A stretch of DNA of 64,000 bases, taken from the NCBI GenBank assembly GCA_963667255.1, contig OY762940.1:288001-352000 (forward strand), in the 5' to 3' direction. How positions within the stretch are numbered: the stretch's first letter is position 1; the number at the start of each line of letters is the position of its first letter. Below are positions 15,868 through 59,440 of the stretch, piece by piece. Origin of the DNA: Candidatus Cloacimonadota bacterium (GTDB lineage: Bacteria; Cloacimonadota; Cloacimonadia; G963667145). The position numbers and the translations under genes were made by a program. The notes under the pieces are model-generated. The model ran no database searches, was not told where the DNA came from, and saw nothing but the letters and a program-made list of their open reading frames with translations.

Positions 15868-15922
15868 TTTAGAACACTCATTTGGGTAACTAAATTTAAT
15901 GTGGCTTAGATGGTAGTTAGCA
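15868..15922 (+). repeat. Conserved leader element (attI-like), copy A
   Basis: Ungapped 32/51 match to 18093-18143; both end in GTT at the start of an accessory gene unit. Confidence 0.6.
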
Positions 15923-15942
15923 CCTATTTAGAAAAACAGAAC

Positions 15943-16518
15943 ATGAAGCTACCTATATTAAAAATAGAAAATTCGGATTTAGTTGAATTCATTAGTTATT
16001 GGTCAAAGCTCTATGACTACCCATTAGAATCACTGTATAACGAAAGAATTTCAAAAAAAGAATTCGATAACGAAGACCTTCAACAATTATTTATATGGAA
16101 AAATGGAATGAAATTAAGTACTGGAAAGCAAAAGTCATTTGAGGAGAAAATTTTATCTAAACGAAAGGTTATAAATGACTTAAAAGCAAAAGAAAACATT
16201 GAGCTAAAAGAATTTCAAAACCATTTCAACAACCTTTCTGCTGTTTGGAAAATATTCCTTCTACATATAATCAGACCAAACAAATTTCCGATTTATGACC
16301 AACATATTAATCGAGCATTTAACTATATTCATGGACTTGCCTTTCATAATATCTCTGCGAATTCAATGACCAATAAAAGCAAAGAAGAATTTTATTTCAA
16401 TACATATTTAGGATTTATTGAATCATTGGATGGTATTGATTTAAAAGCATTAGATGAAGCTTTTTTTGCATTTGGACAATTTATAAATACAAAAACATAT
16501 ATTCAAATGATTAATTAA
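15943..16518 (+). CDS. Hypothetical protein (cassette-like, FPIYD motif)
   Basis: Clean AT-rich 191-aa ORF; no confident family assignment. Confidence 0.75.
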   Translation: MKLPILKIENSDLVEFISYWSKLYDYPLESLYNERISKKEFDNEDLQQLFIWKNGMKLSTGKQKSFEEKILSKRKVINDLKAKENIELKEFQNHFNNLSAVWKIFLLHIIRPNKFPIYDQHINRAFNYIHGLAFHNISANSMTNKSKEEFYFNTYLGFIESLDGIDLKALDEAFFAFGQFINTKTYIQMIN

Positions 16519-16592
16519 TAACAGCCCCTAACAATTTGTAAACACAATTAAAGTAATATAATAAAACAAACTCAACCCCACAGGAGACCTCA

Positions 16593-17222
16593 ATGACCAC
16601 ATATTTGTATGTATTAGACACACTCGCTGACTGGGAAATCGGCTACATCACCGCTGAGCTGAATAGTGGTAGATACCTCGACAAAACAAAACCGCCAGCA
16701 CAGATAATCAAAATCGGCAACACCACCGAGCCAATCAAAACGATGGGCGGAATGGCTATTACCCCTGATGCAAGTGTCAGCGAAATTGCTTTTGAAGACG
16801 GAGATTTGCTGATTTTGCCCGGAGCAGAGACTTGGGCAGACGAGAGCCACACCAAAATTCTGGATATGGTCCCCGATTTGCTGAGCAAAAATGTAATCGT
16901 CGCCGCTATCTGCGGTGCTACTATCGCTCTGGCGAACAAGGGGCTTTTGGACAATAGAGCCCACACAGGCAACGACAAAGAGGTCTTGAAGATGTTTTGC
17001 CCAAATTATGCAGGCGAGAAGTTTTACATCGACAAGCCTGCAGTGACAGATGGAAACTTGATAACAGCCTCAGGACTTGCTCCGCTTGAGTTTGCCTACG
17101 AAGTATTCAAAAAAACATCCGTGATGAGACCGAAAACTTTGGAAGCGTGGTATCAACTATACGCAACCAAAGAAGCCAAATATTTCTTCGTTCTGATGGA
17201 GTCGCTGGGAGATGGGAATTAG
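16593..17222 (+). CDS. DJ-1/PfpI family protein (type 1 glutamine amidotransferase-like)
   Basis: LADWE, LILPG, AAICG nucleophile elbow, DGNLITASG; RBS AGGAG. Confidence 0.9.
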   Translation: MTTYLYVLDTLADWEIGYITAELNSGRYLDKTKPPAQIIKIGNTTEPIKTMGGMAITPDASVSEIAFEDGDLLILPGAETWADESHTKILDMVPDLLSKNVIVAAICGATIALANKGLLDNRAHTGNDKEVLKMFCPNYAGEKFYIDKPAVTDGNLITASGLAPLEFAYEVFKKTSVMRPKTLEAWYQLYATKEAKYFFVLMESLGDGN

Positions 17223-17598
17223 ATGAGCAACATCAAACAATACAATCAACTCGACTTTTACACCAAAGTAGCTAATTTGCTGAAAGAATCTCGTAAAAGC
17301 GTTGTTCAAACTATCAACAAAACAATGGTTTGCACCTATTTTGAGATAGGACGAATGATTGTAGTAGAAGAACAAAACGGGAAAGAGCGTGCCGAATACG
17401 GGAAACAACAGACAGTGTCTGCTAAATCTGAAAATGCAATTATTTCAAAGGACAATTTGCAATTAAGCTGGTCTCATTATTTGTTGCTGATGCGAATAAA
17501 TAACTCCAACGAAAGAAAATTTTATGAAATTGAAAGTATTAATAATAATTGGAGCTTAAGAGTTAAAACAATTGATTGAAAACAAGATGAATGAATAA
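17223..17598 (+). pseudogene. YhcG/DUF1016 nuclease remnant with two internal deletions
   Basis: EEQNGKERAEYG and LSWSHY match the intact paralog at 19021; the C-terminal ELKQLIENKMNE* follows out of frame at 17560-17598. Confidence 0.85.
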
Positions 17599-17712
17599 CT
17601 TTTCAATTGCAATTATTATCGAATAGAGAAAATCGGTTGACGGCTTTGTCCAACTTATGAATATCAACAATCGGATAATTAAATAGCTTAGAAACGCAAA
17701 AGGAAACCCATA

Positions 17713-18060
17713 ATGAAACGGAAACTTTTTTTAATCATCACGCTTTCTTTGTTCACACTGCTTTTCGCACAACAAGCCGGTAGCACCATCGGCAACAAGC
17801 AAATCGGAGACATCAATTTATACAACTATCGCAAAGCAGCCATAGTCCAGTTCCCGTCAAAGATTTTGGAAGTCGGCTCGGAAAATTTAGTCTTAGACCC
17901 CAGCACCGTAAAGTTCATGGACAAATATCTTATCTTTGCGAGCAAAGCCAAACTCAGCGGTCAACTCTTTTACATCTTGACCGAAGAGAAAGCCTACTAC
18001 TATTATATCTCAACATCTTACAACGATAAATTTCCGGTTATACTGGAGATAGAAGATTAA
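17713..18060 (+). CDS. Hypothetical secreted protein
   Basis: Signal peptide MKRKLFLIITLSLFTLLFA; RBS AAGGA. Confidence 0.7.
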   Translation: MKRKLFLIITLSLFTLLFAQQAGSTIGNKQIGDINLYNYRKAAIVQFPSKILEVGSENLVLDPSTVKFMDKYLIFASKAKLSGQLFYILTEEKAYYYYISTSYNDKFPVILEIED

Positions 18061-18079
18061 ATTCGATATAAAGGAAAAT

Positions 18080-18153
18080 AAATGCAACTACGTTTAGACT
18101 GCCAATTTGGACAAATAAACACAATTAAGGTTATGCGGAAGTTGTGTGTAATG
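18080..18153 (+). repeat. Conserved leader element (attI-like), copy B
   Basis: Matches copy A (32/51 ungapped) and copy C (51/74, one gap); ends at the GTTGTGTGTA core. Confidence 0.7.
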
Positions 18154-18205
18154 CAATAAAAACACAGAAAACACTAAATACATAGACAAGAAGAAATTAC
18201 CTTAT

Positions 18206-18772
18206 ATGGAATACCAAGAAACTGGAAGATTTGGAAGAATAACAAAAAATCTCAGAAAACAAGGATTTGAATTAGAGATGAAAGAAATTCTTTACGACTC
18301 AAAAGATTTTCCTAAATTAAACAAGAAACTCCAAACAAAATACATTGCAACTGTAATGGATAGAATGGAAAATTCAATAGGAAAGAAAAATACGAAAAAT
18401 GTTTTGTTTTCTTGTGGAGTGCAATGTTGTGGAAAATCTTGGTCTAATTTTGTTAACGACATTTGGAAAAAATCTGAATCAATAGAAGAATTTATTAAAA
18501 ACTTAAATAAAGCAGAAGAAAAATACAGTACTTGTTTTTCATTTGACCGAATAAATAATTCAATATCAGTTTATAGAAAGAAGTGCATATGTGGCTTAAT
18601 AAATAAAGGAAACCATTTTGATGGCAATGCAAATTATTGTAATTGTAGCATTGGTCATATGTCAAAATTTTTCAATTCGGTTCTTCCCATTGATAATATC
18701 ACATTGAAACAAACAATTTTTAATGGAAACGACAAGTGTGAATGGGAAATAAAGATAATAAAACAAGAATAA
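18206..18772 (+). CDS. Cys-rich hypothetical protein (DUF6144/V4R-like)
   Basis: CGVQCC, CIC, YCNCSIG and G.DKCEWEI pattern. Confidence 0.65.
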   Translation: MEYQETGRFGRITKNLRKQGFELEMKEILYDSKDFPKLNKKLQTKYIATVMDRMENSIGKKNTKNVLFSCGVQCCGKSWSNFVNDIWKKSESIEEFIKNLNKAEEKYSTCFSFDRINNSISVYRKKCICGLINKGNHFDGNANYCNCSIGHMSKFFNSVLPIDNITLKQTIFNGNDKCEWEIKIIKQE

Positions 18773-18784
18773 AGAAACAATAAA

Positions 18785-18923
18785 GCACATACACACAACA
18801 ATGTGTCATACGTAATGGCGGCGAAAGTGCAAACATCAAGTTTTGACTCTCGCATCAACTTCATCTCGGTTTGAAAATGAGGTGCTCCGAAATCCGCCAC
18901 TACGCATACACTAACCGTTATCT
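18785..18923 (+). repeat. attC-like recombination site 1
   Basis: Starts ..CACACAAC just after the stop codon and ends CCGTTATCT; arms GTGT(C)ATACGTAATGGCGG / CCGCCACTACGCATACAC pair with one bulged base. Confidence 0.8.
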
Positions 18924-19020
18924 GCAAGCGGAAAACCAGCGACACAATCAACACAAAAAAAGATTTATTAGGAGTCGAAAAAAATAAAGTAACTTTGAAG
19001 ACTAAAATTTCGGAGAGCAT

Positions 19021-20043
19021 ATGACTAAATCAAATGATATAAAAATTGTTGCAGATAATTATGACAGCTTAGTTTCCCAAATATCTGATACATATTTACA
19101 AGGGAAAGATAATGCCGTAAAAGCAGTAAATTTAGAAATTGTAAATACCTATTGGAAAGTAGGAGAACATATCATTGAATATGAACAAAACGGAAAAGAA
19201 CGTGCGGAATATGGAAGTAAATTATTAGAAAAACTTTCAAAAGATTTATCATTAATGCACGGTAAAGGATTTAGCGTTAGCAATATTCAAAGAATGAGAC
19301 AATTATACGATGAATATCCAATTTATGCGACACTGTCGCACAAATTGAGTTGGTCACATTATGTTGAACTTCTAAAAATTGATGATAAGTTAGAAAGAAG
19401 CTTTTATGAAAAGCAAAGCATTCTTGAAAATTGGTCTATTCGTGAATTAAAAAGACAAAAGAAAACATCATTATTCTTGCGACTTGCAGCATCTAAAGAT
19501 AAAAAAGGAATTTTAGAATTAGCAAAACAAGGACAATTTGTTGAAAAGCCTGAAGATATAATTAGAGAACCTTACGTTTTAGATTTCCTACAAATTCCAG
19601 AGCCATATAATTTCAGCGAATCTGAATTAGAATCACGAATTATTGATAGCCTACAACATTTTTTATTGGAATTAGGAAAAGGGTTTGCTTTTGTTGGAAG
19701 ACAATACAGAATTACACTTGGAAACAGACATTTTCGAGTTGACTTAGTTTTTTATCATCGTATTTTGAAATGTTTTGTTCTTATTGACCTAAAAAAAGAA
19801 GAGGCTGGATATGAAGATATTGGGCAAATGAATATGTATATGGGATATTTTGAAGCCGAAGAAAATTCAGAAGGAGATAATCCTCCGATAGGAATTGTCC
19901 TTTCAAAAAACAAAGATGAATTACTTGTGAAATACGCAATGAACAAGGTAAATTCTCAATTATTTGTTTCAAAATATCAACTTTATCTCCCGAATCGAGA
20001 TGAATTAAAAGCATTGATTGAAAAACAATTAAATGAAGATTAA
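19021..20043 (+). CDS. YhcG/DUF1016 PD-(D/E)XK nuclease family protein
   Basis: RAEYG, LSWSHY, LLELGKGFAFVGRQ, VDLVFYH, LIDLK, GQMNMY, PPIGI. Confidence 0.93.
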   Translation: MTKSNDIKIVADNYDSLVSQISDTYLQGKDNAVKAVNLEIVNTYWKVGEHIIEYEQNGKERAEYGSKLLEKLSKDLSLMHGKGFSVSNIQRMRQLYDEYPIYATLSHKLSWSHYVELLKIDDKLERSFYEKQSILENWSIRELKRQKKTSLFLRLAASKDKKGILELAKQGQFVEKPEDIIREPYVLDFLQIPEPYNFSESELESRIIDSLQHFLLELGKGFAFVGRQYRITLGNRHFRVDLVFYHRILKCFVLIDLKKEEAGYEDIGQMNMYMGYFEAEENSEGDNPPIGIVLSKNKDELLVKYAMNKVNSQLFVSKYQLYLPNRDELKALIEKQLNED

Positions 20044-20066
20044 AAATATTAATATAGTGAACGAAA

Positions 20067-20205
20067 CCGCCAGCATAGAACATTTTGTATAAGCGATAGC
20101 GGGTGAATGCTCAATTCGTAGGTTTGTAACCCGCCCGAGCATTTTCTCGGTTTGAAAAGTTTAACTCACGAGAACCGCTACGCCACATACCGCCAACCGT
20201 TAACA
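20067..20205 (+). repeat. attC-like recombination site 2 (left core degenerate)
   Basis: Arms GTATAAGCGATAGCGG / CCGCTACGCCACATAC; shares TCTCGGTTTGAAAA and terminal AACCGTTA with site 1. Confidence 0.75.
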
Positions 20206-20227
20206 AAACATTTTTTAGGTGAATAAG

Positions 20228-20842
20228 ATGGAAAATTTATTTCTTGACCAAAAAAAAACACTTCACACTTGCAAGGAAGAAGATTGCAAAAATTGTAATG
20301 TATCAAAAGATATTAACTGTCATTTCAACTTAAAGCAGTTACTAAACTTTTTACTTATTGCTCTTCCCCCATTCATTATCGGTGGATATACCATTTATAC
20401 TCATAATTGGATATTTTTAGCAATTTGGATAGTAATTATTCTCTTATATTTCGGCTTAGTTGAAATTAGGGTAATGTGTTCTCACTGTCCGCATTATGCT
20501 GAGCCAAAACTAAAAACTCTCAAATGTTGGGCAAACTATGGTGCACCAAAATTGTGGAAATATAGACCGGGACCAATGAGCATAGCAGAAAAAACTATTT
20601 TTTTATTTGGAATGAGTGTTGCGTTTTTATACCCTATTATTTTCCTCGTCATAGTAAAAGAATGGTTTTTATTATTTATCTGCATAATGACCACTATCGC
20701 ATTTTTTGCCACTCTAAAAAATTTTTTGTGTGCACATTGTATAAATTTTGCATGCCCATTCAATACTGTTGATAATGATACAAGAAATAAATTCTTCGAT
20801 AAAAATGTGGTTGTAAAACAAGCATGGAAAAAAGAAGATTAA
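20228..20842 (+). CDS. Four-helix membrane protein with Cys/His clusters
   Basis: Two hydrophobic helix pairs followed by CSHCPHY and CAHCINFACPFN. Confidence 0.7.
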   Translation: MENLFLDQKKTLHTCKEEDCKNCNVSKDINCHFNLKQLLNFLLIALPPFIIGGYTIYTHNWIFLAIWIVIILLYFGLVEIRVMCSHCPHYAEPKLKTLKCWANYGAPKLWKYRPGPMSIAEKTIFLFGMSVAFLYPIIFLVIVKEWFLLFICIMTTIAFFATLKNFLCAHCINFACPFNTVDNDTRNKFFDKNVVVKQAWKKED

Positions 20843-21387
20843 TAATTGTAGGTGGAGCTAATGGTGTAGGCAAAACAACTTTTGCTTATCAATATCGAGA
20901 TGAATACAAAATTGATTATCTTGGAGCTGATGAAATTGCTTTGAGAATCAGCAAGACAGAAAAAAAAGATGTTGAATTAAAAGCAGGCAAAGAATTTTTC
21001 AAAACTCTTGATGAATATTACAATAAAAACAGATCAGTAATTATTGAATCAACTCTTTCTGGAATTGGATTATCAAAAAAACTTAAAAAATTTAAAGAAA
21101 ATGGTTTTACTATCCATCTACTGTATGTTTTTTTGGACGATATAAATTTATGTAAAAGTCGTGTTGCTGCAAGAGTCAAAAAAGGCGGACACGATGTCCC
21201 TTCTAAAGACATTGAAAGAAGATATTATCGCAGTTTTGCAAACTTAAAAAAAATATATCTTCCATTAGCAGATACTTGGCAAATTATATATAATGGATTG
21301 AAAAGACCTATTGAAATCGCTATTTCCGATAATAATTCAGAAATGATAGTTGATGAAGAATATTATAAAAAATTTTGGGAGCTTTAA
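20824..21387 (+). CDS. Zeta-toxin-like P-loop kinase/ATPase
   Basis: GGANGVGKTT, ESTLSG, RVAARVKKGGHDVP. Confidence 0.85.
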   Translation: MEKRRLIIVGGANGVGKTTFAYQYRDEYKIDYLGADEIALRISKTEKKDVELKAGKEFFKTLDEYYNKNRSVIIESTLSGIGLSKKLKKFKENGFTIHLLYVFLDDINLCKSRVAARVKKGGHDVPSKDIERRYYRSFANLKKIYLPLADTWQIIYNGLKRPIEIAISDNNSEMIVDEEYYKKFWEL

Positions 21388-21389
21388 AA

Positions 21390-21548
21390 ATGAATAAAAG
21401 TGATTTAAAAAAGACAAAAAAGAAAATCAGTGCTAAAGCATTGCAACAATTCGCTGACAATAGACGGATTTTTAATAAAGCCGTAGAAAAAGCGATTGAA
21501 GAGAACAAGAAAGCAAAAATATTAACTGAAAATCTTTATGCTAAATAG
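21390..21548 (+). CDS. Small basic protein, probable partner of the zeta-like ATPase (52 aa, not in ORF track)
   Basis: ATG 2 nt after the zeta-like stop; MNKSDLKK...AVEKAIEENKKA...LYAK*. Confidence 0.6.
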   Translation: MNKSDLKKTKKKISAKALQQFADNRRIFNKAVEKAIEENKKAKILTENLYAK

Positions 21549-21575
21549 TCCTTTAGAGAAAACCAAACCACCCTA

Positions 21576-22907
21576 TCATCGTCTCCGCAATCCCTTCGGT
21601 AAATAGTTGTTTAGTCTGCCGTTAGCGACCTTGCCCCAGCCAACTCCATAACCATCAACCGTAACCAAGCACCAACCTTTGGGCAAATGGACACTCAAGC
21701 TCTCACCTGCCAAATAGTCCGCCAATCCCAAATCACTACTCTCAAAATTCAAGCTGTTTACCACATCATTCGCCGTGAGATGCAAAGCCAAAGCATGCGA
21801 AGGCTCAAATCTATTCTTGGCGACTCCGCCCAAATGAAGCCCGAAATTTAGCACCCGCAAATCGCTCAAATCAAGATTTTGCTCAAAATCGTTTAGATAC
21901 AAATTGTCGTTCAGCAGGCACAACCGACCCGATAAACTCTCTCTCAAAAATTCTCGCTGGAATCCCTCCCACAGCTCATTTTTCTTGATACTCTTGGGGA
22001 ACTCTCTTTTGGATTTGGAAACAAATTTAGACGATTCATTCTTTTGCAAAACAGCCACAAAATGCCCCTCTCCCTTGTGGATATGCGGATAAATTTGCAG
22101 GGAGCTGAACTTGCCAAAGCAATCAACATTCTCAATCTCACTCCTAACAAAATCGGGATGTTCTTGCAAAAATTCGTCAATCTGTTTCTCGTTCTCCTCT
22201 GGGGCGAAAGTGCAAGTGGAATACACCAACCGACCACCATCGGCAAGCATCTTCGCTGCTTCGTGCAAGATTTGCTTTTGCCTCTTCGCACAACCGAGAA
22301 CGCTCTCTAAACTCCACTGACTTGTTGCTTCGGGATTTTTGCGAAACAACCCCTCTCCAGAGCACGGAGCATCCACCAAAATCTTATCAAAAAACAACAG
22401 GAATTTCTTCCCTAACTCCTCAGCCTCGTTATTGGTAACTATCGCTCTTCTTGTGCCAAACCGTTGCAAGTTTTCCCGCAAAATCTTCGCTCTGGAAAAC
22501 ACAACTTCGTTGGCAATAAGCAGTCCGCTATCCCCCAATTTGCTCGTTATCTGCGTAGATTTCCCCCCGGGAGCAGCACACAAATCAAGCACTCTCTCAC
22601 CCACTTTGACATCCAAAGCCTCCACCGGCAACATAGCCGACGGCTCTTGCAGATAATACAAACCCGCTTGATGATACGGATGCAAACTCGGACGAAACCT
22701 CTCCTCAAAATAGAATCCCTCATTGCACCACTGTATCTGCTCCAGCTCAAATTCATCTTTCAGAAACGGCAATCTATCCTTTATCTTCAGAGAGTTAACC
22801 CGCAACCCTTTGGTATGCTTACAATTATAACTATTCGAAAATTCCGAAAACTCCTCATCTCCGAGCTGCTTCTTCATCCTCTCCAAAAACAATTCAGGTA
22901 ATTTCAA
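21576..22907 (-). CDS. RsmB/RsmF (NOL1/NOP2/Sun) RNA m5C methyltransferase
   Basis: YLQEPSAM, LDLCAAPGGKS, VDAPCSGEG, YSTCTF..EENE; C-terminal RsmF-type domains. Confidence 0.93.
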   Translation of the reverse strand: MKLPELFLERMKKQLGDEEFSEFSNSYNCKHTKGLRVNSLKIKDRLPFLKDEFELEQIQWCNEGFYFEERFRPSLHPYHQAGLYYLQEPSAMLPVEALDVKVGERVLDLCAAPGGKSTQITSKLGDSGLLIANEVVFSRAKILRENLQRFGTRRAIVTNNEAEELGKKFLLFFDKILVDAPCSGEGLFRKNPEATSQWSLESVLGCAKRQKQILHEAAKMLADGGRLVYSTCTFAPEENEKQIDEFLQEHPDFVRSEIENVDCFGKFSSLQIYPHIHKGEGHFVAVLQKNESSKFVSKSKREFPKSIKKNELWEGFQREFLRESLSGRLCLLNDNLYLNDFEQNLDLSDLRVLNFGLHLGGVAKNRFEPSHALALHLTANDVVNSLNFESSDLGLADYLAGESLSVHLPKGWCLVTVDGYGVGWGKVANGRLNNYLPKGLRRR

Positions 22908-23501
22908 CTAATCCTCGATTTTGTCATTTTTAATTCGTAGCTCATTCATGACATTCAGAAAATCTTCCTCAATCTCAAGCGGAATAGCAACTTTCGCCGT
23001 AATCTTGTCCGAATACTTCGTGTCAAATATCTCCAAATTCAGCAAATTCAACTTGTAATTCAAACTATCCAAAAGACTGTAAGCCAACTCCACAGAGTAG
23101 GTCACCTTGCATATCAACTGCTCCAAACCGACAGTCTCCACAGCCTCCTCGGTCACAGAAGAATATGCGTCAATCAAGCCGGAAATCCCCAGTTTTACAC
23201 CCCCAAAATATCTGGTAATCATCACACACACATTCGTGATATTCTTGGAAAATAAAACTCCCAAAATCGGCTTGCCGGCTGTCCCTGACGGCTCTCCGTC
23301 ATCAGAAGAATGAAAAATCTCGCCATCAGCACCCACGATATACGCCCAGCAATTGTGACTGGCATTCTTGTGAGAGCGACTAATCTCCGAAATTCTCTCC
23401 TTCGCCATTTGGGCATCATCGACACAAAAAAGGTGAGTTATGAACTCGGAGCGTTTAATTTTAACACTCTTAGTCAACTCACCTTTCAATATATACTTCA
23501 T
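22908..23501 (-). CDS. YigZ/IMPACT family protein
   Basis: ASHNCWAY, SDDGEPSGTAG, RYFGGVKLG. Confidence 0.93.
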   Translation of the reverse strand: MKYILKGELTKSVKIKRSEFITHLFCVDDAQMAKERISEISRSHKNASHNCWAYIVGADGEIFHSSDDGEPSGTAGKPILGVLFSKNITNVCVMITRYFGGVKLGISGLIDAYSSVTEEAVETVGLEQLICKVTYSVELAYSLLDSLNYKLNLLNLEIFDTKYSDKITAKVAIPLEIEEDFLNVMNELRIKNDKIED

Positions 23502-42031: not shown

Positions 42032-43294
42032 ATGAGTAAAATAGTAAAAAATTCGAGAAACACGGGGAACGCTCCCAAATGTGCTTTTTCTACACAAACA
42101 GTAGCTTTTTCCCACTACAACAACATTTCCGCTCAATTGCCTATCGATGCAAAAAGTAGCAAAACCGTTGCAGGTGGAGTGAAAGAACAAGCCGCTCAAT
42201 GCCTCAAAAATATCCAAGCGATTGTGGAGAGCGTTGGTCACATTATGTCTGATGTTGTCAGAGTTAATGTTTACCTCAAAAACATCACTGACCTTGATGC
42301 TGTGAACGAAGTTTACGCAGGCTTCTTCTCTGGCTATTTGCCGACAAGAACAGCTTTTGCCGTGAACGAATTGCCTATGAGCGATGCCCTGGTGATGATG
42401 GATGCCCTTATCTCCAACGGCGAGGGAACAACTCCACAAGACCCTTGTGACTTGGTGAAACTCGTCCGCAACACAAACGATGCTCCATTGAGTGCCATCT
42501 CTACTCAAACTGTCGCTTTTTCTCACTACAATAACATCTCAGCTCAATTGCCTATCGATGCTAAATCTGGCAAAATCGTAGGAGAGAACGCAAAAGACCA
42601 AGCCACTCAATGTTTGAAGAACATCAAGGCGATAATGGAAGCTATCGATGCTCCGTTTGATGACATCGTGAAAATAAACATCCAACTCAGAAATCTTGCC
42701 GACATAGATGCAGTTAATGAAGCTTACAAAACTTTCTTCCCCGATTCTGCGATTGCCAGAGCAGTGGGATATATGCCTGCCCGTTCAGTAGTAGCTGCTA
42801 CAGGCTTGCCGATGGACGCTCTCGTGCAAATCGATGCGACCCTCTCTCACGGAGACGGCACACCGCCACAAGCTGTGGAAGACAGGCACAAACTCGGCAT
42901 CAGTGCTAAAAACACAAGCAACGCTCCTGTAAGCCCAGTCTCTACACAAACTGTGGCTTTCTCCCACTACAACAACATCTCAGGTCAATTGCCTATCGAT
43001 GCTAAGACCGGCAAAATCGTGGGAAGCAACGCCAAAGAGCAAGCTACACAATGTTTGAAAAATCTCCAAGCAATTGTGGAGAGTATTGGTCATGTGATGG
43101 ACGATGCCGTTAAGGTCAACATTCAGCTCAAAAATATCGCCGACCTTGATGCCGTGAACGAGGCTTACACCACATTCTTTAGTGGCGACCTGCCTGCCAG
43201 AACTGTTCTCGGAGTTTCCGAAATCCCGATGAACGCTCTCGTGCAAATTGATGTTATCATTTCCAACGCTGAGAGCACACCACCACAAGCATAA
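42032..43294 (+). CDS. RidA/YjgF family protein with three tandem domains
   Basis: STQTVAFSHYNNIS(A/G)QLPIDAK occurs three times, each followed by Q..QCLKN, AVNE.Y and P(T/A)R. Confidence 0.9.
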   Translation: MSKIVKNSRNTGNAPKCAFSTQTVAFSHYNNISAQLPIDAKSSKTVAGGVKEQAAQCLKNIQAIVESVGHIMSDVVRVNVYLKNITDLDAVNEVYAGFFSGYLPTRTAFAVNELPMSDALVMMDALISNGEGTTPQDPCDLVKLVRNTNDAPLSAISTQTVAFSHYNNISAQLPIDAKSGKIVGENAKDQATQCLKNIKAIMEAIDAPFDDIVKINIQLRNLADIDAVNEAYKTFFPDSAIARAVGYMPARSVVAATGLPMDALVQIDATLSHGDGTPPQAVEDRHKLGISAKNTSNAPVSPVSTQTVAFSHYNNISGQLPIDAKTGKIVGSNAKEQATQCLKNLQAIVESIGHVMDDAVKVNIQLKNIADLDAVNEAYTTFFSGDLPARTVLGVSEIPMNALVQIDVIISNAESTPPQA

Positions 43295-43313
43295 TCTGAA
43301 AAAGAATAATATC

Positions 43314-43344
43314 AAAAGGAACAGGTTTTTCTGTTCCTTTTTTT
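43314..43344 (+). terminator. Intrinsic terminator
   Basis: AAAAGGAACAG-GTTTTT-CTGTTCCTTTT plus T-run. Confidence 0.85.
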
Positions 43345-43740
43345 ATGGGGCATCGATTACTCCTCAAAGTTTTGCTTGACGGAAGAAACAACACATACTT
43401 TTCTGCTGTTATTATTATAGTTAACTACTGGAGATAGATTTTAAACTTAAATTTATGAAATGAAAAATATGAACCTTACAATCATTATTGGCATCATATT
43501 GATAGCCGTAGGAACTTTTCTAACATATTTTGGTAGCCAAAAAAAAGCAAAAGACAGTGAAGATAGAATTATTCAAAAAATTAACCAAACAGAAATCAAA
43601 TTAGAAAATGTTTTAAAAGAGGAAAATCTATCCGACGACGCAAAAAAAAAAGTAATTAAAATAGAAAATGAGTTTGTAGGTTGGGCTGAAAATATTTTTC
43701 AACACATTAATATTCGACGATTAGAAATTACAAAAAATGA

Positions 43741-44851
43741 GGGAGTGTGCAAATAACTGGGTCTGAAATAAGACCTAATTATGTTTGACAGAATAAGTTA
43801 TGAACATTTATTAAAATGCCATGAGTATAATCAAAAAAAACGCTGTCCAAATTGTGATAGCTTAAACACAAAAAAGAAGGGATATATTTTCTCTGAAAGA
43901 ACAACTAATCGTGGGAAAATTAAAGTCAAAACTCAACGATTTTATTGTAAAGATTGCCAAATAAGTTTTACCAATTTTGGATATAATAAGAGAACTCATT
44001 TTGCACCAAAATTCAAAGATAAGGTTGTTACTGACTATATTTCAACCAAAAGTTCTCTTTCTGAAGTTGCTAAAAGACATGGGATTTGTAAAAATAGTAC
44101 TCTTAATTGGATACCTCAGCGAGCTAATTTATATCAGGATAATGTGTTACACAGCAATATAGATGAGACAACAATTTATATTGATGGCAAGGAAATTAAG
44201 ATAAACGGTAAGCGAAAAGTTGTCTTAGTCGCCAGTAGCAAACTACTTGATAAACCAATATATTACAAGATTTATGATAGAGAACATAGTAGTTCATCTG
44301 AAGACTTTTTGAATAGACTAAAAAAAATGTATGACAACAAAATAATTGGGATTGTGTCAGATTTTGGGCGAGGGAAGTGCTTTGTTAAGCCAGTTAACCA
44401 ACTTTTTGAAGATGTTCCACATCAAATTTGCTTGGTTCATTATTTAAGAAGCGTTAATATCAATGTTCCTAAAACAAAAAAGAGTAAGTTTTTTAGACGA
44501 AATATTTTCTTTAAGAACTTGATTAAGAGCATTTTAAATGCTGAAACTTTACAAGAAGCTGAAAATAATTTAAGTTCGCTTAATCACTATGAAAAATTTT
44601 TTCGCCTAAAAATTCATAAGCGTTTTATTAAATCAATTAATCGAAACTTTGGTTTATTAACTGCTCATTTTCATTACGATTTTTTGGATAAAACAACAAA
44701 TAAAATTGAAAATATTAATCGACAATTGAATAGGAAATTAAAAAATTTAGACGGATTTAAATCTGAAAAAAATATGAATCATTTTTTGAAAATTTGGTTC
44801 AATAATTATTCAAAAGGAGTGGAAATTAGACCCAATTAAATGCACGCTCCC
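43741..44851 (+). mobile_element. IS256-family insertion sequence (1111 bp)
   Basis: 24-bp imperfect terminal IRs GGGAGTGTGCAAATAACTGGGTCT / revcomp GGGAGCGTGCATTTAATTGGGTCT; 8-bp target duplication AAAAATGA at 43733-43740 and 44852-44859. Confidence 0.9.
43781..44839 (+). CDS. Transposase (Zn ribbon + HTH + Mutator-like DDE)
   Basis: CPNC..CKDC, YIDG, VSD, HQICLVH, TTNKIENINR. Confidence 0.88.
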   Translation: MFDRISYEHLLKCHEYNQKKRCPNCDSLNTKKKGYIFSERTTNRGKIKVKTQRFYCKDCQISFTNFGYNKRTHFAPKFKDKVVTDYISTKSSLSEVAKRHGICKNSTLNWIPQRANLYQDNVLHSNIDETTIYIDGKEIKINGKRKVVLVASSKLLDKPIYYKIYDREHSSSSEDFLNRLKKMYDNKIIGIVSDFGRGKCFVKPVNQLFEDVPHQICLVHYLRSVNINVPKTKKSKFFRRNIFFKNLIKSILNAETLQEAENNLSSLNHYEKFFRLKIHKRFIKSINRNFGLLTAHFHYDFLDKTTNKIENINRQLNRKLKNLDGFKSEKNMNHFLKIWFNNYSKGVEIRPN

Positions 44852-45429
44852 AAAAATGAGATTCATACTGAGTCTTTAAGAATTGAACTAAACGAAAAAT
44901 GGAAAAGTATATATTTTGATTTTTTCAATAACACTAAAAATATAATCAAAGCCCTCAATAAAACAAATAATTTTCAAATAGAATATAGTTTCCCTACTCT
45001 ACCAACTAATGTTTTTTCTACCAATTATAAAAAATACCAAGCAAAAATAAACTTTAAAAATAATATTCAATGGCTAATTTCTTTAATTCCAAGAAAAAAC
45101 TCAGGTGATAATTTCTTTCCTGCAATAAATATAGAAGTACTGATTGATAATCGTAAACAAGATGAAATAACAATCATACTATATCCTGAAGAAAATAGAT
45201 TTGTTCAACACATTTTATATAGTCCTTATTTGAATTTACCACTAGAGAGTAAAGAAAGAACGATATCTAATTTAATAGAAAACATTAAAGAAATGGTTGA
45301 GTTACAACTAATAAAAATTAATTCAAGCAAATAATTTCTTTTAACTCTTTCCCCCATCTTCCCTCAAAAATTCTTGACATTCTCACGGTTACTTTTGAAC
45401 CTAACTGAAAAACAAAACAGGAAGATAAA

Positions 45430-53226: not shown

Positions 53227-53789
53227 ACTACTACACATTTCTAACCATCTTTTTGGCAAACCTGCTCATCCTCGGTGCTATACCGTCTTTGGTAAAATTT
53301 CTCCTCTTCTGCAAACTCCACTCCTTCTTGGGCATCAAACTATTCTTCACACCCGGGATCGTCATCCGCAAAGAAGAATGGCTGAACAACAAAATCAACA
53401 ATGCTATCATTGAGTATCAAAAATTTTGCCTTGACAAAGAAAGCCAGTCCATCATAAAAGCTGAAAAAAAACTTAACGATATTATTTACGAAAAAACAAA
53501 ATTCATCTTGTCTATTCACTTCTTACCGACTTTTGTTTGCAAATTTCTGCATAAATTTATCGGGAAAATGGTTTACCTGCTGACCACCCAATCGGTGAAA
53601 GAGATTACTCCGAGACTGGTAAGCAAATACGAAATCGAGTCACACCTATTGGAAATTAGAAATAAAATCAGCCCTGAATTTGTAGAAGAGATAAGCCAAA
53701 AATACTTGTTCAGATATCTGACCTATTTCTTCGTCGCTTTGGGACTTTTTACAGGAATAATAAATTTGTTAATTATATGGATATTATGA
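53223..53789 (+). CDS. Hypothetical membrane protein (N- and C-terminal TM, DUF445-like layout)
   Basis: Operonic ATGA overlaps at both ends; terminal hydrophobic helices. Confidence 0.6.
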   Translation: MNYYTFLTIFLANLLILGAIPSLVKFLLFCKLHSFLGIKLFFTPGIVIRKEEWLNNKINNAIIEYQKFCLDKESQSIIKAEKKLNDIIYEKTKFILSIHFLPTFVCKFLHKFIGKMVYLLTTQSVKEITPRLVSKYEIESHLLEIRNKISPEFVEEISQKYLFRYLTYFFVALGLFTGIINLLIIWIL

Positions 53790-55021
53790 AAAAAATCGTT
53801 TTTACTTTTTTGCTCACTCTTTGCTCTTGGGGGTTTGCAGTTGAGTTTAGTCAATTGGACTCCGCCTATCTCAGCGGAAATATCAACTACATCAGAGAAA
53901 ACTTGGACAACATCGCCATCTTGACACAGGAAGACAAGGAACGCCTTGAGTATTTCCGAGCCATCGTCCTCACTTCTCCCAAATTCATCAAAGAGTTGGA
54001 AAACATCTCCAAGCAACAAGACAACAAATATTCTCAAGCCTCTCTTTTGGAATTGGCTAAGGTTTACTATTTGGAGCAAAAATACCAAAAAGCGAAAGAG
54101 CTTTTGGGAAAAGTTACCGCCCAAAATCTGCAAGCGGAAAAATACTACTGGCTGGCATATTGCGAATACTCCCTCGGAGAATATATAAACAGCATCTATT
54201 ACGCTCAAAAATTCCTGACTACCACCACGGACAACGACAAAATCGAGAACATCTACATCCTGATTAGCAATTGCTATCTCAAGCAAAATCAATACAAACT
54301 TGCTTTGGAACTGCTGAAAACCGTAGATAATCTCAACCTTTTCTCCGCTCAAAAAGCTGCCGCTCTTTACAATATCGGTCTCTGCTATCAATTGCTTGGC
54401 GACACCGAAAAACAAAACGAAAGTTTTTTCACTCTGAAAAGGGACTTTCCCTACAGCAAATACACACAAATGTTGGGCGAAGTGCCTGAACACGCTGAAG
54501 CGATTGCCAACACAAATCAAAACGCTGAGCCCTCTTCCGGCAATTATTATCTGCAAGTGGGAGCTTTCCAAAACAACGAAAACGCTTTGGAACTCGCGGA
54601 GTTTCTAAAACAAAACAACTTTGCCTCCACCATAAAAAAAGATTTGAAAAACAACACCTTGCTCTACAAAGTAATGGTTGGACCTTTGGCATCGCAAGAC
54701 GAGATTAACCAAAACAAAAGCAAGCTCTTGAGCCACAACTATCCGAGCTTTACCGTGCAACCGGAAAAAGAGGAAGAAAGCGCACTCAGCCAAAAAAGTT
54801 ACTATCTGCAATGTGGCGTTTTCAAAGACCCTTCAAAATTGCGGGGAAGAATAGAAACTCTCGCCAAACTGGGAGTAGAGGCAAAGGCGTATCGCAGAAC
54901 CATAAACAAAGAGGTTTACAACTACGGCGTTATCGGACCTTTCCCCGACAAAGAAAAGGCTCTGATACAGCAACAAGAACTGGTAAAGCAAAATATCAAC
55001 ACCAACCTTTTCGTAAAATAG
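53786..55021 (+). CDS. TPR + double SPOR domain protein
   Basis: Signal peptide, TPR helices, YYLQVGAF and YYLQCGVF. Confidence 0.85.
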   Translation: MKKIVFTFLLTLCSWGFAVEFSQLDSAYLSGNINYIRENLDNIAILTQEDKERLEYFRAIVLTSPKFIKELENISKQQDNKYSQASLLELAKVYYLEQKYQKAKELLGKVTAQNLQAEKYYWLAYCEYSLGEYINSIYYAQKFLTTTTDNDKIENIYILISNCYLKQNQYKLALELLKTVDNLNLFSAQKAAALYNIGLCYQLLGDTEKQNESFFTLKRDFPYSKYTQMLGEVPEHAEAIANTNQNAEPSSGNYYLQVGAFQNNENALELAEFLKQNNFASTIKKDLKNNTLLYKVMVGPLASQDEINQNKSKLLSHNYPSFTVQPEKEEESALSQKSYYLQCGVFKDPSKLRGRIETLAKLGVEAKAYRRTINKEVYNYGVIGPFPDKEKALIQQQELVKQNINTNLFVK

Positions 55022-55028
55022 CCTCTGC

Positions 55029-57632
55029 ATGGACTCCCAAAAAACCACTCCGATGCTGAAGCAATTTTTGAAGTTCAAAAACCAGCATCCCGATAAAATC
55101 GTTCTCTTTAGAATGGGAGATTTTTACGAGACATTCTTCGAAGATGCAAGGCTCTGCTCCAAAATCCTCAACATTACACTTACCTCGAGAGACAAAAACA
55201 AAGAAAACTCCGTGCCATTGGCAGGATTTCCCTATCACTCTCTGCCCAGCTATCTGCCAAGACTAATCGCCGCTAATCAAAAAATTGTTATTTGTGAACA
55301 AGTGGAAGACCCGAAAAATGCCAAAGGCTTGGTCAAAAGAGAAATCGTAGATATCATCACTCCGGGCAGCATTGTCGATACTGAATACATCCACTCGACT
55401 GCGGACAACTACCTGACATCACTCGTCAAAGAAGGCTCGGAATACGGCGTCGCCAGTGTCGATATCTCCACCGGAAATTTCATCTTCACACAAATCAACA
55501 ACGACCAATTGAGTGCCGAACTAGAGCGACTCTCGCCAAAAGAGTTGCTTGTCATGGAAGAGAACGAAAACGAAATAAAGAACTCGTTCGACCCCAAAGT
55601 TACCCTCAGCCGTTACGAAGACGAAGAGATTGACCTGCCACACGCTGAAAACATCTTGAAAAGCCACTTCTCTCTGCTCTCACTCTCGGGAGTCGGAAGT
55701 TTTGAACATCCCTTGGCAACAAAAGCCGCCGCAATGGCTATCTCTCACTTGAAAAATCTGAAGAAAAACGATTTGAAACATATAAACAAAATCGAATTTT
55801 ATACCCTCGGCTCCAGAGTGCAACTGGACAAATCCACCGTAGCAAATCTGGAACTAACCAAATCTTTGATAGAAGGGACAACGCACGGAACACTTTTGCA
55901 AGTCCTCGACCAAACCTGCACACCCATGGGAAGTCGCCTTTTGAAAAAATGGATACTGCGACCCCTTTTGGAACAAGAAAGTATCGAAAAAAGATTGGAA
56001 ATCGTAGAGGAATTAATCGAGAAAATCGAGCGGACTGCTTACTTGCGGACATCACTCGACCAAGTCGGAGACATCGCCAGATTGGCAAGCAAGCTCTCCA
56101 CAGGCTCTATCAACCCCAGAGAAATCTTGGCAATCGCCGAATACCTGAAAATCAGCAAGCACATCAAGAACACATTGAACTTCTTCGGCTCTTCCTCATT
56201 GCTCCAAATCAAAGACAACATCAAAGATTACCAAGAAATCACCGAAAAAATCGAAGTCACTATTTGCGAAAATCCCCAAAAACTCATCACTCAAGGCGGA
56301 ATAATAAAAAGCGAAGTAAACGACGAATTGAGCGAACTTCACGAAATCAGCCGTCAGGGAAAATCGTGGATAATCAATTTGGAAAAGGAAGAGAAAGAGA
56401 AATCGGGAATTTCCACCCTCAAAATCAACTACAACAAGGTGTTCGGCTACTACATAGAGATTAGCAAACGGCAAGCGGACACCGTGCCGGAAAACTACAT
56501 CAGAAAACAAACTCTGGTAAATTGCGAGAGGTTCATCTCGCCCGAACTCAAAGAATACGAAAGCAAAGTGCTGGGAGCGGAAGAGAGAATAAAAGAGTTG
56601 GAATACGAACTCTTCTGCCAACTGCGAGACTATCTGCAAGAGAGAATCGATAGCATTTTGGAGTTCGCTGAGACCATTGCTCTGCTTGATGTTTACGCCA
56701 ATTTCGCTCAAATCAGTTTCTTGCGTGGCTACTGCAAACCGACCTTCAACGACAAAAATATTCTGACGCTCAAAGACTCGTTTCATCCCGTCATCAAGGA
56801 GTTGCTGAAAGAGCAGAAGTTCGTCCCCAACGACATCTACCTCGACAACGAGCAAAGCAACATCATCCTCATCACAGGTCCGAATATGGCGGGGAAATCT
56901 ACATATCTCAGGCAAATAGCCATCACTGCTCTCATGGCACAAATCGGCTGTTTCGTTCCGGCAAAAGAGGCTTCCATGCCGATTTTCGACAAAATTTTCA
57001 CTCGGGTCGGAGCATCGGACAACTTGGCAAAGGGACAAAGCACCTTCTTGGTGGAGATGCTGGAGACAGCCTCCATCCTCAACTTTGCCACCAAAAACTC
57101 CTTGGTAATCTTGGACGAAATCGGACGAGGAACCAGCACCTACGATGGTCTGTCTCTCGCTTGGGCGATTATCGAGTACTTGCACACCAGCCACATGAAA
57201 GGCGTAAAGACCTTGTTCGCAACGCATTACCACGAATTGACATACTTACCAAAAATTTTACCGAGAGTGAAAAACTACAATGTTCTCGTGGAAAAAGATG
57301 AGAACAAAATTCTCTTTTTGCACAAAGTCGTGCCCGGACACGCATCGCAAAGCTACGGAATAGATGTCGCCCGTCTGGCAGGCATCCCGATGGCTGTGAT
57401 AGACCGAGCCAAAGAAATCTTGGTAGAGCTGGAAGAGCCCAACCACAACGAAAAGAAAGAGAAAGCTCTTTCCCAATTGCAAGCCTTCCCTCAACCGCAA
57501 AAAACAAAAATCCCTAAAAATCTGCTGACCTTGCAAAAAGAGGTCGAGAAAATCTCTCCCGACAATCTCACTCCGCTTGAGGCGTTACAGAAATTGGCGG
57601 AACTCAAAAAAATCTTGTCTCAAGACTTCTGA
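55029..57632 (+). CDS. mutS: DNA mismatch repair protein MutS
   Basis: TPMLKQF, GDFYE, TGPNMAGKST, STFLVEM, DEIGRGTST, FATHYHEL. Confidence 0.98.
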   Translation: MDSQKTTPMLKQFLKFKNQHPDKIVLFRMGDFYETFFEDARLCSKILNITLTSRDKNKENSVPLAGFPYHSLPSYLPRLIAANQKIVICEQVEDPKNAKGLVKREIVDIITPGSIVDTEYIHSTADNYLTSLVKEGSEYGVASVDISTGNFIFTQINNDQLSAELERLSPKELLVMEENENEIKNSFDPKVTLSRYEDEEIDLPHAENILKSHFSLLSLSGVGSFEHPLATKAAAMAISHLKNLKKNDLKHINKIEFYTLGSRVQLDKSTVANLELTKSLIEGTTHGTLLQVLDQTCTPMGSRLLKKWILRPLLEQESIEKRLEIVEELIEKIERTAYLRTSLDQVGDIARLASKLSTGSINPREILAIAEYLKISKHIKNTLNFFGSSSLLQIKDNIKDYQEITEKIEVTICENPQKLITQGGIIKSEVNDELSELHEISRQGKSWIINLEKEEKEKSGISTLKINYNKVFGYYIEISKRQADTVPENYIRKQTLVNCERFISPELKEYESKVLGAEERIKELEYELFCQLRDYLQERIDSILEFAETIALLDVYANFAQISFLRGYCKPTFNDKNILTLKDSFHPVIKELLKEQKFVPNDIYLDNEQSNIILITGPNMAGKSTYLRQIAITALMAQIGCFVPAKEASMPIFDKIFTRVGASDNLAKGQSTFLVEMLETASILNFATKNSLVILDEIGRGTSTYDGLSLAWAIIEYLHTSHMKGVKTLFATHYHELTYLPKILPRVKNYNVLVEKDENKILFLHKVVPGHASQSYGIDVARLAGIPMAVIDRAKEILVELEEPNHNEKKEKALSQLQAFPQPQKTKIPKNLLTLQKEVEKISPDNLTPLEALQKLAELKKILSQDF

Positions 57633-58318
57633 TGGCGATATTTGCAGACAGTTCGTCTGCTGATTTTTATCCCCTCGCCCTGTAAAACTTCCGCAATCTC
57701 CCTGTCGTTCTTCCCGCTTTCAGCGAGATTTTTTACCCTATAAACCAACTTTTTCAAGCTGACTTTTCCTTGACCTTTGACCAACAAATCCCGCAAATCT
57801 CGGAACTCTTCCCTAAATTTGACCCGCTTGTTTTTCACCAAAGAGTAAAAAACATTTTTGGAAATCTCCAACTCCTCACACACCTTGTCCGAAGAGATTG
57901 GCAAAAACACCAACCCCTGTTGCAAAGCAATCTCTTGGAATTTGCAAAGATAAAATCCGACCTTGTGCAAAAGCTTTTCTCGGGAATTTAGAATATTCAA
58001 AAGCAATTTGACCCGCTTCCTTCTCTCCAAAAAAAACGGCTCCGTGCAAGCGGCATACTCGGGATTTAGCACCAACTCCGGCAAGTAAACACCATTGACC
58101 AGACACTCTCTGCCATCCCAAATCAAATCCACCTGCTCCTGCGAATAGTCGTAATTTTCGACCTTGCTCATATCCAGCAGAGGATTGTCCCAAATCTCGT
58201 GCTTCACAAACAAGCTAAGCTCCCGCAAATCCATCTTATACAACTCCAAGAAAAGCGGAGATTGCCCCACTTTTCTCCCCACAACGATGTCTTCAAAATT
58301 GATTAGCGAATTGCTCAT
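57620..58318 (-). CDS. Truncated sigma-54 (RpoN)-like protein
   Basis: Region-I-like EL...EIWDNPLL and RpoN-box-like DREIAEVL..EGIKISRRTVCKYR, but only 232 aa. Confidence 0.75.
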   Translation of the reverse strand: MSNSLINFEDIVVGRKVGQSPLFLELYKMDLRELSLFVKHEIWDNPLLDMSKVENYDYSQEQVDLIWDGRECLVNGVYLPELVLNPEYAACTEPFFLERRKRVKLLLNILNSREKLLHKVGFYLCKFQEIALQQGLVFLPISSDKVCEELEISKNVFYSLVKNKRVKFREEFRDLRDLLVKGQGKVSLKKLVYRVKNLAESGKNDREIAEVLQGEGIKISRRTVCKYRHQKS

Positions 58319-58330
58319 AACGGGCTTCTC

Positions 58331-58936
58331 TTACTGAACTCGGAGTTTGGCAGCCTCAAAAAGCTCTTGCGTGTTGAGATTTTCCGTGATGCCCACATCC
58401 AAAACATCCACATACACAGCGTCCTTGTAATACGGCATCAGCACATCGCGAAAAGTCGGACTGACACTGTCATCCAGAACTTTTTGCACGAAATCAGCTG
58501 AAAACAAAATCGGATGACCCTTCTTCGGACGACCATCTTTGCGACCCACGGGAATGACAAACGGAGCGTTCCCCACGAAAGCATCCATTATCGTCCGATA
58601 GCTCGACGGCAAAACAAACGGCTGGTCAATCAGATTCAGCATCACCGGACTCCCTGCATCCACACTCTCAAACCCCTTCTTGATAGACGACAGCATACCC
58701 CCTTCGAGATGATTCGGATTTAGCACAGGATAAGCAAATCTTTCGTATCTATCGCCCAGATAATCGGATACCGCTTGGAAATTGTCGCCCAAGACAACAA
58801 CGACCTTTTCCGAAAAAACCTGCAATTTCTTCAAAACCATATCGATGGTTTTCGCCTTACCGACCGTCAAAAGAGCTTTGTCCTCGCCCATTCTGGACGA
58901 TTGCCCTGCACAGAGCAATATGGAAGTAATTTTCAT
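58331..58936 (-). CDS. MobA/MocA-like nucleotidyltransferase
   Basis: LCAGQSSRMGEDKALL, GMLSSI, DQP, GHPILF. Confidence 0.88.
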   Translation of the reverse strand: MKITSILLCAGQSSRMGEDKALLTVGKAKTIDMVLKKLQVFSEKVVVVLGDNFQAVSDYLGDRYERFAYPVLNPNHLEGGMLSSIKKGFESVDAGSPVMLNLIDQPFVLPSSYRTIMDAFVGNAPFVIPVGRKDGRPKKGHPILFSADFVQKVLDDSVSPTFRDVLMPYYKDAVYVDVLDVGITENLNTQELFEAAKLRVQ

Positions 58937-59127
58937 ACTCAAATCCTTATTTGTAATTCTCTCGCCAAAGTTGAGTTAGCGGTGCACAAAGTCAAGTGGT
59001 AGTTATCGTTATGTGCTTTCCCAGAGGGTCTTCATATCTGACCTCATAAATGAAGCCTCAAATGATTAACCGTATTTATGTGGTCAGGCTACGACAAAAA
59101 AAGAACAGATAAGCACGAAAATAAGAA

Positions 59128-59220
59128 TGGGTCCCCGTTTTCACGAGGACGAAGAATAGAGAGCAAGAAGACAAAGAAGAACAAGAAGCCCACCTCATTC
59201 CCGCGTAGGCGGGAATCCAG
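59128..59220. repeat. Inverted pair of REP-like palindromes
   Basis: TCATTCCCGCGTAGGCGGGAATCCA (59195-59219) and the reverse complement of 59128-59152 (TCGTCCTCGTGAAAACGGGGACCCA), 16/25 identical, both hairpins. Confidence 0.7.
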
Positions 59221-59366
59221 CCGGAGACTAACAAGGACAACAGCAGTCATTACGAGTCACCAATGCAGTTGCTACTTTGCAAATTCCAAAAATCCTTTGA
59301 CTAAAAAATTTCAAATCCTATTTGGGTTTAAAATTGGAAGGAAGAAGAAAATAAGAGAAAGGAATT

Positions 59367-59440
59367 AAATGCAATTGTAGTTGACCTGCCAATTTCGGAT
59401 GACTAAATATCATTGAAATTATGCTGATATTGTTTGCAAT
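59367..59440 (+). repeat. Conserved leader element (attI-like), copy C
   Basis: 51/74 identity with one gap to 18080-18153, including AAATGCAA, CTGCCAATTT and TTATGC. Confidence 0.65.

Follow-up and report, generated by a model that had tools for sequence, protein, structure and literature searches.

Eight copies of a site of about 75 bases occur in the 1.59-Mb single-contig genome of Candidatus Cloacimonadota bacterium (assembly GCA_963667255.1), and three of these lie inside the 64-kb window analyzed here (64,000 nucleotides; contig OY762940.1, positions 288,001 to 352,000). Sequence comparisons make it likely that all eight are attI-type insertion sites of an integron-like platform, left orphaned when its recombinase gene was deleted, because the site, a dyad, stops at a cassette's first base and because, elsewhere, it directly follows a recombinase gene resembling that of rAID-1 (recombinase-associated acquired interbacterial defence). 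Judged on these grounds, the feature would act as the attI of an integron does, yet it belongs to no canonical integron, since the IntI-specific insertion is absent from the recombinase; the copies are most fittingly classed with an rAID-1-like cassette system, as primary sites that have been orphaned. Site copies are labeled A to H (A, B and C in the window), genomes carry a G number and sequence loci an L number, and X3 and X4 are runs.

Each copy ends in an opening core, GTT (ATT once, in copy C), at which an AT-rich unit starts; the GC content of the DNA behind the site is 27–33% for all eight copies, as compared with 39% for the genome. The initial annotation had aligned A (15868-15918) with B (18093-18143) without gaps at 32/51 identities, both ending in GTT, and this we could reproduce. 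The third copy that it proposed also proved real, including its ATT core, although not at 59367-59440 with 51/74 identities, where an ungapped alignment gives 25/74; C corresponds to B at 59358-59431, with 52 of 73 aligned columns identical and two 1-base gaps. A profile trained on A, B and C, the check put forward with that annotation, added five copies from the genome, four of them full ones with E values of 2e-9 to 7e-8 and the other at E 0.009. A profile of all eight scored the copies at E 1e-18 to 1e-10, whereas the best values in two locally shuffled genomes were E 1.0 and 1.4. When C was left out it was recovered at E 1e-6 with the seven other genome copies and at 1.5e-4 with 41 sites. 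Copy A ranked 5th to 6th among 53,489 GTT-anchored windows, with only true copies above it, using three weight matrices from which it had been excluded; hence A is probably a true, albeit degenerate, copy. A chance likeness of AT-rich intergenic stretches could draw on the weakness of A by itself and on one unrelated-looking window with 32/51 identities, which turned out to be copy H read backwards; against the shuffled genomes, the profiles trained outside this genome and the anchored ranks it is extremely improbable, and for B to H it is refuted. In a tree of the sites B-G cluster weakly (80/90), H joins sites of other genomes and A forms a long branch, and because these fall apart the eight copies probably have two or three origins. 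Rfam at gathering threshold gave no match in the window, and BLAST searches of 61 relatives with copy B, a method too insensitive for this purpose, yielded short matches only.

The site had been described as non-palindromic, a claim that did not hold: it is a dyad centred on CCAA-T-TTGG, and the profile matches the copies on both strands. Among 21 positions, 15 are paired in E (p 0.0005), 14 in H (0.002) and 12 each in B, D and G (0.02–0.04), while ungapped pairing was not significant for A (11/21), C (8/21) and F (7/21). Four arm positions whose 3' letters lay outside the search pattern pair in 75–87 of 89 metagenome sites. Folding of the single strand is absent for the site (z +1.1 to -0.3), in contrast to the attCs (z -2.0 to -2.7). 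A short leader open reading frame (ORF) crosses site B and may be a weak analogue of the short ORFs of integron attI sites, such as ORF-11 and ORF-17 (PMC11511950). The frame is open in 69/77 sites, as compared with a mean of 62.6 (maximum 68) after column shuffling; it is broken or missing in A, C, D and F, and entropy over the 77 sites is flat by codon position, with no signal of protein-level selection.

No recombinase is present at any site within the window. The genome has only two PF00589 genes, XerD-like and XerC-like, and tblastn with 80 family recombinases detected no remnant in the genome beyond these, so the original proposal, in which an attI-like primary site recurs along the chromosome with no integrase, is supported. 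In the sister genome G003 an intact tyrosine recombinase lies directly behind the orthologous comM gene, and next to it come a related site and then a cassette array. The best 80 relatives of this recombinase are mostly from Bacteroidota; family members also appear in cyanobacterial records. A site of the window type was found at full length (E 7.6e-11) 18 nt behind the recombinase stop codon of L036, and copy H is identical at 29/29 positions to the DNA behind the recombinase gene of L047. The next-door tyrosine recombinase anticipated by the initial annotation thus exists in other genomes and not in this one, and the site is not the free-standing element that had been supposed, but belongs to an rAID-1-like recombinase and became solo, as we read the sequences, by gene deletion. 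The proteins of L036, L047, L227 and L261 form one clade (support 98/99). Aligned with three true IntIs, six of six family proteins lack the IntI-specific insertion; they score 204–218 bits on TIGR02249 (cut-off 265) and retain the catalytic Arg and the H-x-x-R motif. A recombinase from a Bacteroides ovatus plasmid, at the head of a set of orphan immunity genes, served as a stand-in for the rAID-1 reference BF9343_RS08045 (criterion >44% identity); the recombinases of L036 and G003 are 55% and 45% identical to it, respectively. Where a family locus had 1.5 kb or more of downstream DNA (42 loci), a hairpin on the same strand was seen there in 22 cases and one on the opposite strand in 0, using a hairpin profile partly trained on those 42 loci. 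Family recombinases were found at E<=1e-45 in 16/101 relatives. In G007 a single intact family recombinase occurs together with four such sites, which lie on other contigs. Many contigs among L026-L105 break off within roughly 1 kb after the recombinase, which is what repeats that interrupt assemblies would produce.

Scans outside this genome brought independent evidence. Matches to the site model were present in 29/101 relatives (E<=0.01) and in 32/151 genomes of the phylum (E<=1e-4), this genome being counted in both. A metagenome scan that used only the central dyad found 105 loci, representing 95 distinct sites. At the expected offset from the dyad 80 of these have GTT, 9 have ATT, 5 have neither and 1 has no room, where chance would give roughly one case in ten (an estimate rather than a computed value). 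Recombinase DNA lies immediately upstream in 31/95 sites (2 full, 23 classed as truncated, among them the nearly full-length L290, and 6 cut by the contig end). Another 37/95 have no recombinase in at least 300 nt upstream, several with tiny stubs by eye, and 27/95 have too little DNA. A profile of 28 recombinase-linked metagenome sites, none from this genome, recovered H, E, G, F, D and B at E<=3.2e-7 (B at E 3e-7). In 17/54 sites the downstream DNA contains the complement of that same site's opening 8-mer, as compared with a mean of 1.4 (maximum 5) after permutation. A strict pattern of the B-G subtype matched 0 metagenome stretches, so no recombinase belonging to precisely this subtype turned up, and a looser pattern matched 0 viral contigs. 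Before counting we dropped 7/28 weak matches without a core in register (L149, L151, L152, L155, L156, L158, L159), the duplicate L134, the reverse-strand and weak matches of one scan and 11 duplicate metagenome matches.

The units behind the copies have the outline of cassettes. A hairpin of 125 bases closes cassette 1 behind B, the first 9 bases of this hairpin being complementary to the opening core, and both B hairpins fold (z -2.0 to -2.7) with the bottom strand slightly more stable. In the runs X3 and X4 homology to cassette B begins at exactly 18141, behind the end of an attC; near 18159 cassette B is 9 bases longer than the X3 and X4 copies, apparently owing to a short tandem duplication. 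By attC standards we found R''-L''...L'-R' closure, an extrahelical base and bottom-strand folding with a weak strand bias. A profile of 53 hairpins gave four significant matches in the genome, two behind B and one each behind D and E, all on the same strand as a copy and at most 4.2 kb behind it. These calls rest on our own profile and scorer rather than on IntegronFinder; the scorer gave dozens of false matches genome-wide and was used only at anchored positions, and a first detector, with 3 matches, was rejected as too strict. H has a shorter hairpin and that of D is truncated, so that attC sites with no integron integrase nearby, the definition of CALIN and SALIN elements, stand behind B (two) and behind E, D (truncated) and H (one each). 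Two or more co-directional downstream genes at GC <=41% follow B, D, E, F and G and are also seen in the G003 array. The cargo is mostly defence-like by Pfam and PADLOC: DNA methyltransferases (D, E, G), TIR (C), PLD-like, NOV_C, Ppx-like and unknowns. Behind A, a 5-base complement of the opening core is found at 16528-16532, and the 191-aa ORF has no Pfam or PADLOC match and no homologue in the 231 other genomes of the class that were searched. The attC profile gave no match behind the TIR gene of C. Gene content behind comM differs in all five sister genomes. Contigs of the source sample, which drop rare variants, showed no excised or empty form of the site. A truncated DUF1016/YhcG gene is present at 17223-17579, 1.4 kb before the intact copy in cassette 2.

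An operator or promoter element of an accessory-gene regulator would account for dyad symmetry, for the lack of single-strand folding and for the -35-like box and ribosome-binding-like motif upstream of many copies. It would leave unexplained the constant offset of GTT (80/95), the R'/R'' closure, the cassette borders at GTT and the position at the 3' end of recombinase genes, and we regard it as very improbable for the site as a whole, a secondary operator role being possible.

How the sites came to stand alone can be read from relatives, in which recombinase 3' stubs of variable length lie before the site, and in which one and the same promoter precedes a stub (L141, L168) or the bare site (L163, L140). 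A second site type of the same genus repeats this pattern: G003 has one intact platform and two 98–100% identical copies with a stub or a broken gene, and in G004 the recombinase promoter is fused to the last bases of the gene, followed by the site. This second type has multiplied independently in sister genomes (L347, L348, L349, L350; G003, G004), and one of its copies adjoins lgt and RidA genes, the same neighbors as those of copy G. The upstream segment common to C, E and G is likely a former recombinase promoter, as its sequence suggests. A TTGAC box is found upstream of 21/30 solo and 0/11 recombinase-linked sites in the Cloacimonadia set, where kin are not independent and the background is 9% and 138/480; it is present at C-H and absent at A and B. 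In a strict promoter scan A, B and C did not exceed shuffles and the TTGACT at C was not called, and the Bacteroidota-type promoter motif was not enriched (2/37 vs. 1/37). Among orthologous loci, that of E is empty in G001, that of F in G004 and G005 and that of D in four sister genomes; G001 lacks B but has the gene that precedes it, and only H is shared. At the C locus of G001 (L186), upstream of an NTP-transferase gene, there is a decayed single-dyad site of another subtype, behind which two genes form a low-GC unit that carries a partial attC.

Several loci indicate that the platform can itself lie as a cassette. In L261 (987-2060) the GTT of a classical-type attC is followed, after about 25 nt, by the start of an intact family recombinase gene, so that the whole platform lies within an array as one of its cassettes, and a GTTAT-type core precedes the start codon by about 25 nt in the intact genes of L036, L227 and L261. 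Such a core lies 15–170 nt upstream of 13/35 metagenome solo sites, as compared with 1/35 in two controls; an attC-like hairpin ends exactly at the core in 11 of 32 examined (score >=9, reached by 3% of 600 random GTTs), and fold z-scores upstream of GTTAT motifs are modestly enriched (16/36 vs. 4/28 controls). What looked like a GTTAT start before B belongs to the orthologous gene and was not accepted as a junction. L252 (1900-2900, minus strand) is a classical integron with a true IntI (367 bits, above the TIGR02249 cut-off), in which the second cassette starts at GTT with a solo site of this family, behind which lies a 293-aa gene. This last case would suit the idea that the sites are used by another enzyme, either a transient classical IntI or the resident XerC/XerD, as would the finding of true IntI in 5/41 relatives and of XerC/D as the sole tyrosine recombinases of this genome. 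A dif site, the target of XerCD, has two 11-bp arms around an inner ATAA-N6-TTAT; this inner motif occurs in 0/8 copies, and the site is tied to the single recombinase clade described above and to its stubs, so that we consider use by another enzyme improbable. As an alternative route of spread DNA uptake is plausible, because ComEC, ComF-like and comM genes are present.

A number of observations weigh against orphaned attI sites of this kind, or against parts of that account. The recombinase lacks, by alignment, an insertion reported as essential for integron function, a requirement stated by Smyshlyaev et al. No detectable recombinase remnant adjoins any of the eight copies, and a GTTAT cassette-like start is absent upstream of all of them; these particular copies may have arrived through DNA uptake or as a cassette-like unit. 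For IntI1, attI-carrying DNA alone does not insert into genomes, according to Loot (bioRxiv 2022.09.11.507474). The outside profile of 28 sites reached C only at E 0.055 and did not recover A, and a left-out hidden Markov model scored A at E 0.22 with the genome copies and missed it with 41 sites. Intact attCs are lacking behind A, C, F and G; an exact 8-base complement of the copy's own core near a stop codon or hairpin exists for B, D, G and H only; and bottom-strand bias is small (37/53 attCs, mean -1.2 kcal/mol). Finally, the TTGAC box stands before only 4/37 metagenome solo sites.

The mechanism we propose for the orphaned sites begins with an intact platform, which, as comparison among genomes demonstrates, consists of a promoter, the recombinase gene, the site and co-oriented cassettes, each with a GTT start and an attC-like hairpin at its end. 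By analogy with the biochemistry of IntI, the recombinase would bind the double-stranded site and insert a cassette through recombination of its folded bottom-strand attC between the G and the TT. Copies of the platform exist at several loci of one genome; they may have traveled as a cassette-like unit or by DNA uptake. Internal deletions then reduced the gene to a 3' stub or removed it, often leaving the promoter beside the site, as seen in the relatives, and as a consequence the cargo would stay expressed while shuffling stopped. A family recombinase supplied in trans could still let solo sites exchange cassettes. The fullest version of this scheme, in which the platform is itself a mobile cassette that inserts at GTT behind attCs, those of classical integrons included, seeds several chromosomal loci, sheds its recombinase through deletions that pass the promoter on to the site, and leaves a genome-wide network of landing pads restocked in trans, is a tentative proposal that we hold to be rather doubtful.

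Whether solo sites are still used is the question on which the last step of this mechanism turns. H and its G001 orthologue share 86% identity over 154 nt of promoter and site, with the same promoter-to-site junction, and diverge exactly at GTT; they hold different cassettes, each ending with a hairpin and GTTAC (5 bases only). G062 has three solo blocks that are 91–96% identical, with a different cassette in each, and in two of the three the same right-hand sequence comes next. No family recombinase was found in G000, G001, G002, G004 and G005; neither this genome nor G001 has one. The H/G001 pair and G062 point to precise exchange after local gene loss, by an enzyme located elsewhere, for example on a platform like that of G003 at comM that has since been lost. 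The opposing explanation takes the solo sites as inert fossils, whose cassettes were received with the recombinase in cis and whose islets were later replaced whole by homologous recombination. It gains from the absence of the enzyme in these genomes, from the drifted core of C and the truncated attCs of D and G, from the genes for DNA uptake and from the lineage-specific positions of most copies, and loses by the divergence of the H/G001 pair at GTT, by the different cassettes of the G062 blocks and by cassette 1 behind B, which is 97.2% identical over 780 nt to its counterpart in G003, whereas the comM DNA is 75% identical. This explanation, which rivals only the step in trans, is a serious one that we rate somewhat below even, and we lean slightly towards solo sites being able to exchange cassettes with a family recombinase in trans. 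The distributed cassette-capture system envisaged by the initial annotation is in this sense a possibility that the comparisons suggest; the copies in this genome today are probably frozen. Upstream of the promoter of the H orthologue, another low-GC block, 4.3 kb long and equipped with an attC, is present in G001 (L179:1770-6094).

Comparison with known systems places the orphaned sites closest to rAID-1, which shares integron hallmarks (Ross et al., bioRxiv 10.1101/471110). In both, a XerD-like recombinase lies 5' of co-oriented low-GC genes with integron-like repeats between them. The present case differs in its host (Cloacimonadales), in its cargo, which comprises restriction-modification, TIR and other genes and not the orphan immunity genes that characterize rAID-1, and in its multiple sites without a recombinase. 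Motif enrichment in that study was run on the stretch that lies just 3' of the stop codon in the recombinase gene; its text defines no attI, crossover point or solo sites, and figure S4 and the supplements may hold a 3' motif. Searches of the open-access literature brought up neither a definition of an rAID-1 primary site nor an account of solo sites in multiple copies or of a platform carried on a cassette. With integrons the system shares the GTT core with a predicted crossover after G, R''...R' hairpin closure with an extrahelical base, a slight bottom-strand bias and a double-stranded primary site; it differs in that the recombinase lacks the IntI-specific insertion and scores below the TIGR02249 cut-off, is co-oriented with the array and has the site at its 3' end (in other genomes, the gene being missing here), and in that a long dyad site is conserved across phyla with many copies per genome. 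In CALIN and SALIN elements, too, cassettes and attCs occur without an integrase, whose loss is a proposed origin (Neron 2022; Ghaly 2021; Loot, bioRxiv 2022.09.11.507474), and 95% of CALINs have no intI pseudogene nearby (Loot, bioRxiv 2022.09.11.507474); here, however, the primary site is kept before every recognizable array and a deletion series is visible. Unlike insertions at attG, the cassettes are found at a conserved 75-base site and not at short GWT sites. The xerD/tnpF-tet(X3) unit has a similar order, namely a 5'-truncated family recombinase (56% identical to L036), a dyad, a 7-base spacer, GTT and then tet(X3), but its dyad sequence is another and it is mobilized by ISVsa3; attI goes unmentioned in the main text of an article about the tetX-XerD cluster of Chryseobacterium (PMC11194056). 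Outside class 1 integrons attI sites are described as poorly characterized in Neron 2022.

A primary site defined to the base, attC hairpins and intact insertion-less recombinases are now available together, which makes the need for the IntI insertion in cassette capture directly testable. The loci also illustrate routes to integrase-less arrays, through deletions that fuse promoter and site and through a platform that would travel as a cassette; such arrays can be searched for in Cloacimonadota and other phyla with the site as a marker. That tet(X3) is preceded by this architecture as well may help to trace the origin of a resistance cassette. If the network restocked in trans exists, a transient insertion-less enzyme would refill landing pads with defence cassettes and, in other hosts, with resistance cassettes.

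Table. Positions of the sites and associated features (window coordinates unless another reference is given).
Feature	Position	Strand	Remarks
comM	14273..15844	+	left flank of variable islet; Pfam Mg_chelatase/ChlI
Copy A, degenerate attI-like site	15846..15918	+	predicted crossover between G15916 and TT
Likely decayed cassette behind A	15916..16532	+	191-aa ORF 15943-16518; no intact attC
Copy B, attI-like site	18066..18143	+	dyad centre 18106; predicted crossover between G18141 and TT
Leader ORF across site B	18082..18159	+	25 codons, ribosome-binding-like motif; possible ORF-11 analogue, weak
Cassette 1 behind B	18141..18916	+	DUF6144-like ORF 18206-18772; attC-like hairpin 18791-18923
Cassette 2 behind B	18917..20203	+	YhcG/DUF1016 ORF 19021-20043; second attC-like hairpin 20079-20203
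TTGACT, -35-like box	59297..59302	+	in upstream segment common to C, E and G
Copy C, decayed attI-like site	59354..59431	+	core drifted to ATT (59429-59431)
TIR-domain gene behind C	59496..60302	+	Pfam TIR_2, PADLOC TIR models
Copy D	genome 592905	-	position of last T; outside window
Copy E	genome 250034	+	position of last T; outside window
Copy F	genome 1228190	-	position of last T; outside window
Copy G	genome 485399	-	position of last T; outside window
Copy H	genome 685507	-	position of last T; outside window
tet(X3) arrangement	L340:3196-3386		Acinetobacter plasmid

Elsewhere in the window, positions 43000-45334 form a low-GC patch with a Mutator-family transposase gene before the triosephosphate isomerase gene, and in G004 a solo site of the second type lies near genes that match this neighborhood.

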